From: an uncultured Acidobacteriota bacterium
Lineage (GTDB): Bacteria > Acidobacteriota > Thermoanaerobaculia > Multivoradales > UBA5704
Assembly (NCBI GenBank): GCA_963700145.1
Contig: OY969474.1
Coordinates: forward strand, 5,120,001 to 5,184,000
Length of the DNA: 64,000 bases
Direction of reading: 5' to 3'
Of this stretch, positions 59,222 through 64,000 are shown piece after piece. Position 1 is the stretch's first letter. Each line of letters begins with the position of its first letter. The position numbers were made by a program, and so were the translations under genes. Under the pieces are notes generated by a model. The model saw only the letters and a program-made list of their open reading frames with translations. It had not been told where the DNA came from and ran no database searches.

Positions 59222-60043
59222 TCAGGGAGAGCTAGGCGGGATCGCCAGGCCGGTCTCCCTGACCAGGTCTGCGAAAGCGGCCGGCGGCGTCGCGCGAAGC
59301 CGTTCCATCAAGGAGGTTTCGGCGGTCTCGACCGACGCCAAGAAGTGCGCGAGGTCCTGGTAGGCGAGGCAGCTGGGCTCCCGCACGCAGAGAACGGCCA
59401 AGTGCACGCCGGTCTCCTCGTCAGGGGCCGTCGCGCTGCCGAGGATCAGCGAGGCGGAGACCGCCGAGGAGCCGGGTGCTCCCCACAGGCCGAGGTATCT
59501 CCCGCTGCGGAGAGGGATTCCACGGTCGTTTCTGCCCACCCAGCGCCAGCCGGTGAAGCTGCCGCGGGTCGGGCGAAAACCTAGCCCGAGAGCCACGGTC
59601 AGCCGGAAGCGGAGATGCTCCGCGGAGGGCTGCTCGTGGATCAGCGGGGAGAAGGCTTCGGCGTAGATCAGCGCCCCCGGGCGGGCTCCATCGGGTGAGT
59701 ACGTGACCAGGGTCGCCCCCGCCGCGGCCGACCAGGCCCAGCCCTCCTTGTCTGGGATCTGCGCGATCATCGAGCGGCCGAGTGGGACGTTCTGGGCATC
59801 CGGCTCGGCGGAAGCCGTGCCGCTCGGCATGGCGTTCAGGTCGCGCGCGAACTGCGTCGTGGGCTCTCCGGCGCGCCTCGCGCGCGCGGCGCTCTGGTAC
59901 TCCGGAAAGAGCGGCTCGGCGCGGAACGTCGGGAAGGCGAGCCGGCGCGGCTCGCGAGCGGCCGGCTGGCAGCCGCCGGCCAGCGCGGCCGCGAGGGCCA
60001 GGGCGGCGAGGCGGCGTCGAGCGGAGGCGATCGGACTGTTCAT
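59222..60043 (-). CDS. Putative lipoprotein of unknown function
   Basis: TGATG overlap with the helicase-like gene; RRRLAALALAAALAGG-C lipobox. Confidence 0.7.
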   Translation of the reverse strand: MNSPIASARRRLAALALAAALAGGCQPAAREPRRLAFPTFRAEPLFPEYQSAARARRAGEPTTQFARDLNAMPSGTASAEPDAQNVPLGRSMIAQIPDKEGWAWSAAAGATLVTYSPDGARPGALIYAEAFSPLIHEQPSAEHLRFRLTVALGLGFRPTRGSFTGWRWVGRNDRGIPLRSGRYLGLWGAPGSSAVSASLILGSATAPDEETGVHLAVLCVREPSCLAYQDLAHFLASVETAETSLMERLRATPPAAFADLVRETGLAIPPSSP

Positions 60044-63000
60044 CAGCGGCGCACCCCATGGGAAAGCTCCTCCTCGGATCGCAGGCGGCTGTCGAGCCAG
60101 GCCAGCGCGGTGGCTTTCGCCCGCTGCCAGTCCCCGGCGGATGCCGTCTCGGCCCGGCTCTCGGCGAGGATTTCGGCCTCGCTGCCCCACTCGTCGAAGA
60201 GCGTGCGCAGGAGGTCGAGAGAAGGGGAGTGGGCGAGCACCAAGCGGCCGAGGCGCAGCAGCAGCTCGAGGCCGTCGCGGAGGATGGCGCGCGCCATGCC
60301 GTTCCCCCCGGGGTCGGCATCGAGCAGATAGAGCCCCTCCGTCGGGGCAAGCACGTCCTCGGGAGCCACCTGCTCCGGATCGGTGACGTGGGGCGCCACT
60401 TGGACACCCTCCCGCGCCCCCCGGTACATCACCGGGAAGAGGGCCCGCAGCACAGCGGCCAGCAGGCGGGCGGCCTCGAACGTGAGGAGAGGCCCGGCGG
60501 CGTCGGGGTTGGGGAAGATCGCCAGCCCGACGGTCTGGAAGGCGAGCGCCTCGTAGCGCTCCCGCACCGCCGATTCGAGGAGCGACCGCTGGCGCGGCTC
60601 GCGGCGCAGGGCATCGAGCCGGTACGTGGCGATCGGCCGCATGCGTACCGTGACTGGCTGGAGCGCCACGGCGAACGGAAAGCTTCCGAGGAGGATCCGG
60701 TCAGGGGACGGAAAGCTCCCGCCCGCGGCTTGCATCATCTCCGGACGGCAATCAGCGATCGGGAGCGGCGTGACGAGGAACAGACGCCGCGGCGACGAGG
60801 CCTCGTCGGTGAGCAGCGGCTCGACGAGCACGTCGCCCGCCGGTGGGGCGCCGGGAGACGCATCCTCCTCCCCCGCGCGCGTTACCGCGACGAAGATCCC
60901 GCGCGCATCCTGGAAGATGCGGCCCGGGTAGTAGTGGACGTGCGCCGTCTCGGCGGCGGTCATCCCGAGCTGCGCCAGGCTCGTTCGATCGCGCACCGCC
61001 ACCGCCCTCGGCGCGGCGAGCTCGACCTGCGCCACCTTGGGCGGCAGGAGATGGCCACCGTCCGGCCCGGCTGCTTCAGCGGGGCGCACAGCGGCGGCCA
61101 GGGTCCGCACGAAGACCTCCTCGACGTATTGGGTGGAGCGCTCGTCGACGTCGGTCCGCCGCTCGCATTGCAGAAGACGCTGGTCGGCGAGCGCGCGCAG
61201 CCGCGGAACGCACATCCCGCCGAAGACGTTGACGACCTCTTCGACCTCGAGCCAGTGCTGCACGAGGTCGGCCGACAGGTGAGGCTCGACGGTGAAGCCG
61301 GTGGGTGGACGGACGAAGGGCCACGGAAGGGAGTCGAGCCGCCGCCAGAGGTCCGAAGAGCTCGGGAGGCCGTCGAAGGCGCCTTCGAGGCCCGGCTCCA
61401 CGGCGGCGATCACGGCGATCGGCTCGCCGGCCTGCGGCGCCTGCCCCGGCGAGCGCCGGAACGCCGCGCCGGCCCGTCGCAGGCGCTCGCGCTCGCGGCG
61501 CACCTCGCTCCAGTTGCCTTCGAGCAACACGACGCAAGCGTCCTCCGCCGACTCGCGACAGCTCACCGGCTCCTCCCCCAGCAACAACGGCCCCCGCCCG
61601 AGGTCGCGCCGGGCGTCGCCGCAAAGTCGGTAGTGCCAGGGCACGGCGAGCTGCTCGCAGACGTCGACCAGATCCGCGAAGGTCAGGGGCTCGCCCGCGC
61701 GCTGGAAATCCTGCAGGCGATAGAAACGCTGCTCCGGCCCCGCCGGCGCTCCCGGTGCGGGCGGCTGCGAGTCGCCGTTGCCCGGCCCCGACGGCGCCCG
61801 GGCGATCCCGCCCGCCGCCAGCTCGGCGTTGTCGCGCTCGCTCGTCTCGCGCTGCGAACGCGAAAAGTTGCGCACCACGGCGTCGATGCCGCAGAGGCTG
61901 CGGATCCATTCCGGCATGCGGTGCATGCTCTCGACGCCCAGCACCAGGACCTGCGGCGCGCTCTTCTCTCCCAGGGCGCGCACGCCGGTCAGCTCGCGCA
62001 GCCGCAGCGCCAAGCGCCGGAAGGCGAGCTGGGCGTGCACCTCCACCGGTCCGGCGAACGACTCGACGTCGTCGACGATGACGAGGCCGAGGTTGCTCAG
62101 CACCGGCGCGAAGGTGTCGGCGCGGTCGAGGACGGTGGTTACCAGGTCGTGCAGGCTGCAGAGGACGACGTCGGGGATGATCCCCTGCGCCAGGTCGGTC
62201 ATCAGATCGCTTCCCGGCCGGCGGACGCGGACGTTCCAGCGCAGCGTCGACGGCTCGATGGCGGCGCGGAACCGCTCCGCCAGCTTCTCCGCCGCCGCCT
62301 CGCTGCGCACCACGACGAGCGTGCCGCGGGTGTGCACCAGGGCATGGTTGGCCGCGGCCAGGAGGACGAGGGTCGACTTGCCCGCGCCTTCCGGTGCCAG
62401 GACGATCAGGTTGCGGCAGCGCTGGCCGCTGCGGTCCTCGAGCGCCTCCAGCGTCTCGCCCAGAGTGAGCTCCTGCAGGGTGATCGGCGGGTCGACGTGG
62501 ACGTAGCCCTGGAGCGCCAGCCGGGTCAGCACGGCGCGCTGCATGGCGGTGAGGTGCCACGGTTGCCGGAGGAGCTCGACGACCAGCGGCGACAGCACCC
62601 CCGCCGTGCGCGGGTCGGCTTCCGACCTCCCCAGCGCCTCGACGGGCCGCACCGACCCCGGCTCAGGCGCCGCGACGCTCCATCGCTCCGCGAGCTTGGT
62701 CAGCACCTCCGGCCATCCCGCTCCCTGGCCGGCGCCGCCGGCGAGCTCCGCCTGTGGCGCCGGCGCCGCACGGTCCTCCCCGCGCAGCACGACGTGTATG
62801 GACCAGGAGGTCCAGAGAAGCAGTGCGACGGCGAAGGCCGAAGGCGGCAGGCGGTAGGGGTCGCCGCCGAGGGAGAGCCAGGCCCAGACGAAGAGCGGAA
62901 CGGCCGCCGCGGCCAGCCACGCCGCCCACTCCCGGAACGAGGGCGCCGGCCGCGCCAGGAAGGGCGCTCCGCTCCACCGCCGCCAGAAGGGGAGTACCTC

Positions 63001-63765: not shown

Positions 63766-64000
63766 GGCCGGCAGGAGACGGCGGCAGGTCCAGCACGGTG
63801 GCGGCGAGGTCGCGGCCCAGCTCCTCGTAGCCGGTCAGCGGGTTGACCGGCGGGGCCAGGGAGCGCGACTCCTGCGACAGCGGGAACATGCGGTCGTCCG
63901 GCATCGTCGGACGGTTGTGGAACGACTCGAAGCGGCGCAGGTTGCGCAGGCTGTTGACCCGGATCCCCTGGACGAGTGAGAGCATGTAGGCGGCGTTAGG
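63758..64000 (-). CDS. 3' end of an unidentified gene entering from beyond the window
   Basis: Frame open to the edge (PNAAYMLSLVQGIRVNSLRNLRRFESF...); overlaps the start of the helicase-like gene by 8 nt. Confidence 0.6.
   Translation of the reverse strand, partial: PNAAYMLSLVQGIRVNSLRNLRRFESFHNRPTMPDDRMFPLSQESRSLAPPVNPLTGYEELGRDLAATVLDLPPSPAGHD

Follow-up and report, generated by a model that had tools for sequence, protein, structure and literature searches.

A degenerate, membrane-anchored relative of the YprA/MrfA helicases encoded in a conserved cassette with a tubulin-like GTPase gene

The DNA analysed here is a window of 64,000 nucleotides (nt), positions 5120001-5184000 of the 5.46-Mb single-contig genome of an uncultured Acidobacteriota bacterium (GenBank assembly GCA_963700145.1, contig OY969474.1); the 20 kb around the site of interest (locus L002) were also examined. 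On the minus strand, close to the end of this window, lies the gene for a protein of 1240 amino acids (aa), P0001, which is a true but degenerate relative of the YprA/MrfA (DUF1998) helicases at the level of fold and profile, and which carries a membrane domain ahead of its helicase-like body. The gene is the fourth of a five-gene cassette that also encodes a von Willebrand factor A (vWA) protein, a tubulin-like GTPase of the FtsZl1/Tubulin_2 type, a large protein with a membrane hairpin (P0005) and a lipoprotein. Our preferred interpretation, which we consider probable if by no means assured, is that a YprA/MrfA-family helicase has been converted to a membrane-anchored pseudo-helicase, which would serve as a nucleotide-binding adaptor within an envelope-spanning cassette.

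Ancestry of the 1240-aa protein

When P0001 was searched against Pfam only the DEAD family was matched (30.5 bits against a cut-off of 26, residues 451-573), with no match to Helicase_C or MZB, and neither PADLOC nor NCBIfam returned anything useful for it. A canonical YprA/MrfA-type helicase encoded in the same genome (769 aa, PF09369) was used as a positive control and scored 86 bits for DEAD, 55.8 for Helicase_C, 31.6 for WHD_HRQ1 and 72.2 for MZB. Single-sequence and profile hidden Markov model searches of the PDB sequences found no match to P0001, and the link to MrfA emerges only from a fold search and from the comparison of profiles.

Residues 390-1240 were modelled with AlphaFold2 using a 41-sequence alignment, and the model has a predicted local distance difference test score (pLDDT) of 86.9 and a predicted template-modelling score of 0.88. 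The top four Foldseek matches to this model in the PDB are all MrfA (6znp, 6znq, 6zns), the best with an E-value of 4.6e-22 over 839 columns and a Foldseek template-modelling (TM) score of 0.51 for the query and 0.56 for the target. Hel308 comes next among the folds, at E 6.8e-9 over about 540 columns only. Profile comparison with hhalign, in which the 41-sequence family was aligned with 23 canonical YprA proteins taken from the same phylum, gave a probability of 98.2% and an E-value of 3.1e-14 over 620 columns, the aligned part beginning at Walker A and ending at the MZB glycine motif. This result is decisive only with the 23-sequence profile, as a single canonical sequence yielded a weak local match (E 2.8e-4).

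The canonical order of domains, which is RecA1, RecA2, winged helix, OB-connector and MZB, is found in P0001 by both the fold match and the profile alignment, and the OB/connector-like region pairs with canonical YprA in hhalign, including HL..., the YYPGRIF / HPgAIYL stretch and VEP. The proposal that this protein is built on a helicase scaffold of MrfA/YprA type, made in an earlier reading from the sequence alone (hereafter the sequence-only reading), is therefore borne out by the full-length MrfA fold match and the profile E-value. Five of the 22 canonical YprA homologues used for the profile (loci L042-L046) are longer, at 960-1040 aa, and have a common C-terminal extension after the zinc domain, which the 769-aa copy in the same genome is without.

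Motifs kept and lost

The motif names used here are those general to superfamily 2 (SF2) helicases, in which motif V is canonically T.A.E.G.D and motif VI Q..GR.GR. Invariance within the family refers to an alignment of 28 homologues. The Walker A motif APEGAGKST is at residues 457-465, as had been read from the letters, and G462 and K463 are invariant in 28/28. The place of DExH is taken by DDVE (residues 565-568), again as the sequence-only reading had it; this tetrapeptide aligns to canonical DELH, and D566 and E568 are invariant in 28/28. D207, E208 and H210 are the invariant motif II residues of the canonical set, whose DExH form P0001 does not have. In the RecA1-like domain H577 and Q579 are also invariant.

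Canonical SAT (S244, A245 and T246, all invariant) is replaced by ESM in the window protein and by D/E-S-M across the family, so its reported absence is correct. The canonical-invariant RecA1 motifs P.KAL..DQ, YDGDTP and NPDMLH, defined on the 23 proteins, are not retained. Motif VI had been described as eroded: it is indeed missing, but erosion understates the change, as hhalign places a 33-column deletion opposite the canonical sequence that begins with the GIDVG part of motif V and ends with QRSGR of motif VI. A similar division applies to the Q motif that had been proposed. The residue concerned, Q409, is conserved to the point of invariance. The profile alignment does not reach it, the Walker lysine is 54 residues further on, and a low-confidence 27-residue insert (422-448) in the AlphaFold2 model separates it from the P-loop, so that Q409 is only a candidate for the canonical HQ.

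At the C-terminal end, LLDADPGGNG (1146-1155) pairs in hhalign with YD.yPGGiG of the canonical MZB domain. The zinc cysteines C733, C735, C739 and C742 are invariant in the canonical set; the four-Cys site is absent from P0001, which has no Cys after residue 1149 and so none in its C-terminal 90 residues. The earlier description of a DUF1998-like end that has lost the four-Cys zinc site is thus upheld. Besides this D..GGNG motif, the protein retains the F.G..E.H....RRL stretch after motif II, the RRE helix of RecA2, HL in the winged-helix region, and YYPGRIF at the place of HPgAIYL. The RecA2-like domain has in addition a family-specific motif around PWHYR.CGD.RR.LGR, in which W710, R713, D717 and R720 are invariant.

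More distant relatives depart further. In a sister subfamily the Walker lysine is replaced by an invariant arginine (G-R-[ST]) in 14/14 sequences (P0165-P0195, alignment A7), and among other distant members motif II reads GGVD in one and remains DELH in another. Because the motif V/VI stretch is lost, the DNA-contact invariants are gone and relatives in the same operon tolerate the change of the P-loop lysine to arginine, a translocating helicase is not expected. Since the P-loop and the acidic motif are strictly conserved in the core family, it is suggested that nucleotide is still bound.

Gene organisation and membrane domain

The G+C content of the region is about 72% and long shadow open reading frames (ORFs) are abundant; normal proteins are given only by minus-strand frames. 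Three overlapping minus-strand ORFs (59222..60190, 60043..63765 and 63758..64000, the last open at the window edge) had been recognised in the sequence-only reading, and the arrangement is confirmed by the ORFs and by the bases that are shared at both junctions. The upstream gene and the P0001 gene overlap by 8 nt at the ATG of the latter (ATGACTAG), and the TGA of the P0001 gene has one base in common with the ATG of the lipoprotein gene (TGATG). The start of the lipoprotein gene is taken to be this ATG at 60043 (273 aa, lipobox to Cys25) and not the GTG at 60190, because the orthologues begin at the signal peptide. The suspicion that the operon runs past the window was also right, as three further genes (P0005, P0006 and P0007) were found upstream. 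A 1354-aa plus-strand ORF at window positions 59782-63846, antisense to the helicase-like gene, was considered and rejected as an arginine- and glycine-rich shadow of the high G+C content and not a gene. The features in the window are as follows.

59222..60043, minus strand: lipoprotein gene, 273 aa plus stop; signal peptide, lipobox Cys25, proline-rich stretch, Mog1/PsbP-like alpha/beta domain
60043..63765, minus strand: gene for the 1240-aa membrane-anchored YprA/MrfA-like putative pseudo-helicase P0001, from the ORF, the Pfam DEAD match and homologues
62785..63765, minus strand: N-terminal membrane domain, residues 1-327, from hydropathy and charge count; conserved W and P
61864..62412, minus strand: RecA1-like domain, about residues 452-634 (Pfam DEAD at 451-573; model pLDDT >90 here)
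nt 62371-62397, minus strand: Walker A, within the RecA1-like domain
nt 62062-62073, minus strand: DDVE at the DExH place, within the RecA1-like domain
61366..61731, minus strand: truncated RecA2-like domain, about residues 679-800; modelled with strands and helices, lacking the motif V/VI stretch
60496..61299, minus strand: helical region (winged-helix position) and beta-rich OB/connector-like region, about residues 823-1090, from model secondary structure and profile alignment
60226..60480, minus strand: MZB/DUF1998-like domain lacking the four zinc cysteines, about residues 1096-1180, from hhalign against canonical MZB
63758..64000, minus strand: 3' end (243 nt) of the 1328-aa gene P0005 (L002 7759-11745, minus strand), which extends to what would be window position 67744

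The polytopic N-terminus that had been noted is made up of six hydrophobic segments by hydropathy (residues 7-27, 39-57, 150-176, 214-240, 281-299 and 309-327). By the positive-inside rule the arginine-rich loops 58-149 (13 K+R) and 241-280 (6 K+R) are predicted to be cytoplasmic, and 28-38, 177-213 and 300-308 to be periplasmic. Invariant W and P positions are found in this region in the 28-sequence alignment, and a feature search of the ESM Atlas gave no usable relative of it. The idea of a repurposed, membrane-tethered helicase scaffold therefore holds, given the conserved membrane domain and the degenerate catalytic motifs.

The five-gene cassette

In minus-strand order the cassette comprises the genes for the vWA protein (P0007), the FtsZl1/Tubulin_2 protein (P0006), P0005, P0001 and the lipoprotein. 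It is flanked by a convergent tatC gene and by a divergent NMT1_3 (TAXI-like) gene. The three upstream products are as follows.

P0007, 922 aa, minus strand: signal-type segment at 6-28, vWA domain with a DDSGS metal ion-dependent adhesion site (MIDAS), membrane segment at 721-739
P0006, 1269 aa, minus strand: Pfam Tubulin_2 (PF13809), E 2.3e-46, 159 bits
P0005, 1328 aa, minus strand: no Pfam family; glycine loop GVGRFG at the start, membrane hairpin near 914-940

The vWA assignment of P0007 is by Pfam VWA_2, at 27.9 bits against a cut-off of 27. Related loci were surveyed with one genome per species, giving 36 loci, and gene presence was determined with tblastn, the denominators being the loci with room on the contig. 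A P0005-like gene is directly upstream of the helicase-like gene in 32/33, a Tubulin_2 gene is present in 29/36 (the remaining 7 have no room for it), and a vWA gene is directly upstream of Tubulin_2 in 24/26. Conservation of the membrane fusion, of DDVE and of gene order, which the sequence-only reading had set out as a check, was examined in the family alignment and at these 36 loci and was seen for all three, in the case of DDVE as DD.E in the core family. In the metagenome loci of the sister subfamily (L071-L080) the order Tubulin_2, P0005-like, helicase-like is kept where the contigs reach, and a vWA gene is found in one.

P0005 may be a degenerate tubulin, for which there are weak leads. 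Pfam Tubulin_2 matches below threshold are found in 6/23 of its orthologues (best E 0.022), and its neighbours in an ESM Atlas feature search include proteins with Tubulin_2 (score 0.89, a lead only). A comparison of the P0005 and Tubulin_2 families with hhalign gave a probability of 1.5%, and BLASTP was negative for P0005 as a tubulin paralogue.

Pfam and NCBIfam searches of the five products found no P-loop GTPase, protein kinase or OmpA-family protein, Pfam found no nuclease, methyltransferase or other effector gene in the cassette, and NCBIfam gave nothing useful for any product. No match to PADLOC-DB v2 was obtained for the five proteins at E <= 0.01, the best values being 0.06 (DinG model) and 0.025 (LmuB), in unrelated stretches, and membership of a PADLOC defence system was rejected on this basis.

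The NMT1_3 (TAXI-type solute-binding) gene (L002 18396-20000, plus strand) and the vWA gene are arranged head to head, with about 20 nt between the former and the annotated vWA start. As a neighbour of the cassette the NMT1_3 gene is not conserved in five other genomes, except for weak ORF matches in L067 and L069. The regions upstream of the vWA gene in five genomes have in common only a three-genome cluster of one unnamed ORF, and downstream of the lipoprotein gene no conserved sixth gene was found in the related loci.

The lipoprotein and its predicted docking

The hydrophobic leader of the lipoprotein ends at Cys25, and this leader and lipobox arrangement is common to most of 25 aligned orthologues; lipidation itself is a prediction. 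In the orthologues the anchor is followed by a proline-rich stretch, and there are a G..GWRW.G motif and a pair of near-invariant cysteines (C219 and C225). The window protein, at 273 aa, is shorter than its orthologues (333-425 aa) owing to two internal alignment gaps of roughly 35 and 45 residues, and it is still confidently modelled.

No Pfam, NCBIfam or PADLOC family was matched by the lipoprotein. Its AlphaFold2 model (pLDDT 89.2) was matched in the PDB by Foldseek to Apa (5zx9, E 1.0e-4, TM 0.59 on the target) and then to Mog1, PsbP, Tsi3, MTC28 and LpqN. Six PDB chains are found at E <= 0.001 (Apa, Mog1, 3lyd and PsbP) with target TM scores of 0.47-0.59, which is a moderate match. The Mog1/PsbP fold is a protein-binding module that is common in secreted bacterial proteins.

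The predicted complex of the lipoprotein with the membrane domain of P0001 scored 0.65; the best of three controls scored 0.00. A score of 0.65 is reached by 58/80 solved complexes and 2/110 mismatched pairs, a calibration that is rough here since our own alignments were used. Contacts agree between runs by at least 92% and the pLDDT of the partner is at least 77. The predicted interface on P0001 (residues 23-33 and 184-212) falls on the loops that had been placed independently in the periplasm, and on the lipoprotein it covers 36-44 and 137-209, including G165, W168, G170 and R179 of the conserved motif. The prediction supports binding of the lipoprotein to the periplasmic loops of the membrane domain. 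A lipoprotein gene is located downstream in 27/29 loci with room, with no match at L017 and L027. The coupling to a lipoprotein that had been claimed is thus substantiated by the translational overlap, by this recurrence and by a complex prediction that passed its controls.

A membrane-embedded protein with predicted periplasmic partners could also be a machine of a different sort, namely an active translocase that has non-standard motifs and uses ATP to move DNA, RNA or polypeptide, either at the inner membrane or across it; the lipoprotein and the vWA protein would then be the envelope parts of the transport route. This would agree with the invariance of Walker A and acidic motif II in the core family, and the invariant arginine-rich RecA2 motif could replace motif VI. 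However, the motif V/VI stretch is deleted and Helicase_C is undetected, the six hydrophobic segments have short loops and form no obvious channel, and hydrolysis appears dispensable in relatives that keep the operon, because arginine replaces the Walker lysine throughout the sister subfamily and GGVD replaces motif II in one distant member. We consider an active translocase quite improbable.

Family size and distribution

A word-indexed search returned 102 homologues of P0001, 958-1790 aa long and 35-79% identical, from metagenome-assembled genomes (MAGs) of Thermoanaerobaculia, Acidobacteriota and Bradymonadaceae, annotated as 'DEAD/DEAH box helicase' or 'hypothetical'. When 1.84 billion representatives were searched exhaustively with phmmer, 124 reached E <= 0.001 and 75 reached E <= 1e-30. 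All full-length homologues from this search possess the N-terminal region, since their match to the soluble part begins around residue 350-530, and invariant positions number in the dozens in both the membrane and the soluble parts across two phyla.

Most homologues (P0023-P0109; alignment A1, columns about 1760-2340) reach 1500-1790 aa through a C-terminal extension of about 300-400 aa, which is absent from the window protein and a few other lineages. The extension has conserved GEGD..D.GRCW, FVQGIP and G...SK.LLLA.LL motifs and matches no Pfam family, although one member (P0109) has a DUF6011 insert there.

An inert relic, in which a decaying helicase gene was accidentally fused to a membrane gene, might be imagined from the many catalytic motifs that are lost. 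The frame is intact, there are 124 cluster representatives, the identity of 35-79% extends across two phyla, the position in the operon is fixed and the AlphaFold2 model is confident, all of which make a relic scarcely credible. The case of a one-off decaying gene, against which the sequence-only reading had itself warned, is contradicted by the 124 representatives and the residues invariant in 28/28, and a one-off decaying fusion was ruled out by these representatives, the 102 homologues and the invariant motifs.

The 36 loci belong to Acidobacteriota (mostly Thermoanaerobaculia) and to Myxococcota/Bradymonadales, including the cultured Lujinxingia vulgaris (L029). Within the class the cassette was found in 2/121 sampled genomes, its own genome counted, and it was not found in three other genomes of the same family. 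The neighbours of the cassette in its own genome (tatC, an S41 peptidase gene and others) are beside it in 0/36 related loci. In a quick tree, from which loci with short matches were excluded (L007, L028, L030-L032, L035 and L036), the Myxococcota/Bradymonadales copies form one clade among several Acidobacteriota clades; the base is unresolved and no direction of transfer is drawn. No row of that tree is reported as dropped for stops or X within its matched part. The cassette is probably an accessory, horizontally moving and self-contained unit.

Such a distribution is also what might be seen if the helicase body still bound nucleic acid and P0001 were a membrane-tethered sensor of incoming DNA or RNA from phages or plasmids, triggering the tubulin-like GTPase for defence or abortive infection. 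Many defence cassettes are likewise sporadic, as here (2/121), and have unconserved flanks. The OB-connector-MZB canopy is retained, the ancestral family is one of 3'-5' single-stranded DNA helicases that the main text of a recent preprint places at the centre of DISARM, Dpd, Druantia and ARMADA (10.1101/2025.09.15.676423), and neighbourhoods of tubulin and vWA genes are read as conflict systems in passages of another paper (PMC7159879). Against this, RecA1 and RecA2 have lost the DNA-contact invariants, with the motif V stretch deleted, none of the five proteins has a PADLOC match at E <= 0.01, the cassette encodes no nuclease, methyltransferase or other effector, and the neighbours in its own genome are of housekeeping type (tatC, S41 peptidase). 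The sequence-only reading had favoured a nucleic-acid sensor; no positive evidence for one was obtained, and the absence of P.KAL..DQ, YDGDTP, NPDMLH and the motif V stretch makes us doubt it, such that we regard a sensor of this kind as unlikely.

A possible role for the cassette

In the pseudo-helicase interpretation that we prefer, the membrane domain of six segments would anchor the RecA1 / truncated RecA2 / winged-helix / OB-connector / MZB-like body to the cytoplasmic side of the inner membrane. The body would no longer translocate on DNA; it would bind nucleotide and act as an ATP-gated adaptor. The putative parts around it would be an exported single-pass vWA protein, a cytoplasmic FtsZl1/Tubulin_2 GTPase, P0005 with its membrane hairpin and a periplasmic lipoprotein, and the adaptor would couple envelope events, sensed at the vWA protein and the lipoprotein, to the tubulin-like GTPase in the cytoplasm and the partner of that GTPase, or the reverse. 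What follows could be a response in conflict or defence, or else a remodelling of the membrane. An accessory or conflict role is somewhat favoured by the sporadic, cassette-like distribution; the lack of any PADLOC component match and of an effector enzyme runs counter to a conflict role.

A number of observations weigh against the pseudo-helicase interpretation. The adaptor role is one that we infer from features lost set against features kept, and contact between the helicase body and the tubulin-like protein is put forward only as a proposal. The score of the predicted lipoprotein complex is the confidence of the model itself and not a measurement. GK[ST] and DD.E are strictly conserved in the core family, as are R713 and R720 in RecA2, and ATP hydrolysis could survive with a different arginine finger; the shortened RecA2 carries an invariant arginine-rich motif peculiar to the family, which leaves room for residual hydrolysis. 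The composition of the cassette also varies. No vWA gene adjoins Tubulin_2 in L029 and L035, and in L026 the vWA gene is downstream and on the opposite strand (5221-7980, minus strand). A vWA gene immediately ahead of Tubulin_2 is missing from the Lujinxingia vulgaris TMQ2 / Myxococcales clade. In the L029 genome (Lujinxingia vulgaris TMQ2) the best vWA match is about 16 kb upstream on the same contig (L070 6524-9394), with a 2320-aa ORF between. In L013, a Myxococcota MAG, 6.4 kb (3550-9930) with five or six ORFs separate the P0005-like and helicase-like genes; these ORFs match no Pfam family and are the sole interruption among the loci examined. Finally, a crude check detected no lipoprotein gene downstream in the sister subfamily, and the link to the lipoprotein is thus not universal.

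A more specific and tentative model, which we would put at the speculative end, is that the cassette could be an outside-in signalling machine, in which the vWA ectodomain and the lipoprotein would read an event at the surface or in the periplasm and pass it through the membrane domain to a helicase-derived, ATP-gated switch, and so to GTP-dependent assembly of a tubulin-like polymer (FtsZl1 with its possibly degenerate partner) at that spot. If this were true, it would be a local cytoskeletal conflict response (sealing, shedding of vesicles or suicide when attacked) of bacteria that are social or predatory, and a DNA-repair helicase fold would have been exapted as a transmembrane signal transducer, a kind of machine that is undescribed in bacteria.

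FtsZl1/Tubulin_2 is the most divergent branch of the tubulin superfamily, for which no function was found in the literature, and the cassette provides it with a small, strictly ordered set of partners. One of these partners comes from the helicase family at the core of several anti-phage systems, but it has lost its motor motifs and become a membrane protein, which is unusual among SF2 helicases. Handles are offered by the Walker motifs, by the periplasmic loop and by the lipoprotein on the function of this tubulin relative, and Lujinxingia vulgaris (L029) is a cultured carrier.

Comparison with known systems

The sequence-only reading had presented the locus as a candidate new system, and this was overstated. 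Operons of FtsZl1 and vWA genes were predicted in print in 2010, and membrane remodelling was proposed for them (Makarova and Koonin, PMC2875224). As set out in the main text of that paper, the likeness to the present cassette lies in an FtsZl1 protein whose N-terminal domain, a tubulin-like GTPase, is followed by a long, helical C-terminal region; in a vWA protein whose MIDAS is intact and which has a signal peptide and a membrane segment; in further lineage-specific membrane-associated genes; and in occurrence beside a normal genome background. The present cassette has the Tubulin_2 gene and the secreted or membrane vWA protein with a DxSxS MIDAS, but not the extra parts that are frequent (not obligatory) in those operons, namely a P-loop GTPase, a protein kinase and OmpA. 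The question of whether the operon matches a described system is therefore answered in part: the vWA and Tubulin_2 components do, and the YprA-like component does not in the main text of PMC2875224, where the word 'helicase' occurs 0 times; the supplementary neighbourhood tables may list the family as an uncharacterised membrane protein.

Neighbourhoods of tubulin and vWA genes were later read as conflict systems (Kaur, Burroughs, Iyer and Aravind 2020, PMC7159879). The GAP1-N2 GTPase-centric systems of that work, in the passages found, resemble the present cassette in having two tubulin-type genes with helical C-terminal parts, a membrane vWA protein with its domain outside the cell, and a sporadic distribution in social or multicellular bacteria. 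They differ in having a GAP1 GTPase and a protein with FNIII repeats, neither of which is found by Pfam in the present five products; they are reported in Firmicutes and Actinobacteria, and no YprA-like component is mentioned in those passages.

MrfA of Bacillus subtilis (6ZNP, 6ZNQ and 6ZNS) shares with P0001 its order of domains, a G.FG.H....RRL-type stretch after motif II and D..pGG.G of MZB. P0001 by contrast has a membrane anchor of about 330 residues and lies in an operon with tubulin-like and vWA genes, with no MrfB-type exonuclease partner, and its genome keeps a separate canonical YprA.

DrmA/DrmB of DISARM, DpdJ, DruE and ArmD of ARMADA belong to the same helicase family, and the re-use of a modular scaffold in multi-gene cassettes is common to them and P0001; the four-cysteine cluster has also been lost in Dpd (10.1101/2025.09.15.676423, main text). 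Unlike P0001, the YprA homologues of defence systems described in that text are soluble, have active helicase motifs, occur with nucleases or methyltransferases and have gained zinc modules, and the PADLOC models of the DISARM, Dpd, Druantia and ARMADA YprA proteins do not match P0001. In the main text of the preprint the words transmembrane, tubulin, vWA and FtsZ occur 0 times; the supplements may bear on the point.

Proteins with the Mog1/PsbP fold (Apa, MTC28 and LpqN of Mycobacterium, Tsi3 and PsbP) are like the cassette lipoprotein in their globular fold. Their identity to it is only 9-14%, and the present protein differs in its predicted lipid anchor, its conserved proline-rich N-terminal stretch and its place in a tubulin-like cassette.

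The texts consulted on FtsZl1, Tubulin_2 and DUF1998/MrfA/YprA held no membrane-anchored YprA-like protein and no helicase in FtsZl1 operons, and a 2023 survey of the tubulin family mentions neither helicase nor vWA in the text consulted (PMC9871819). The combination of FtsZl1, vWA and lineage-specific membrane proteins is thus already in print, and the family that is new is the helicase-derived component.

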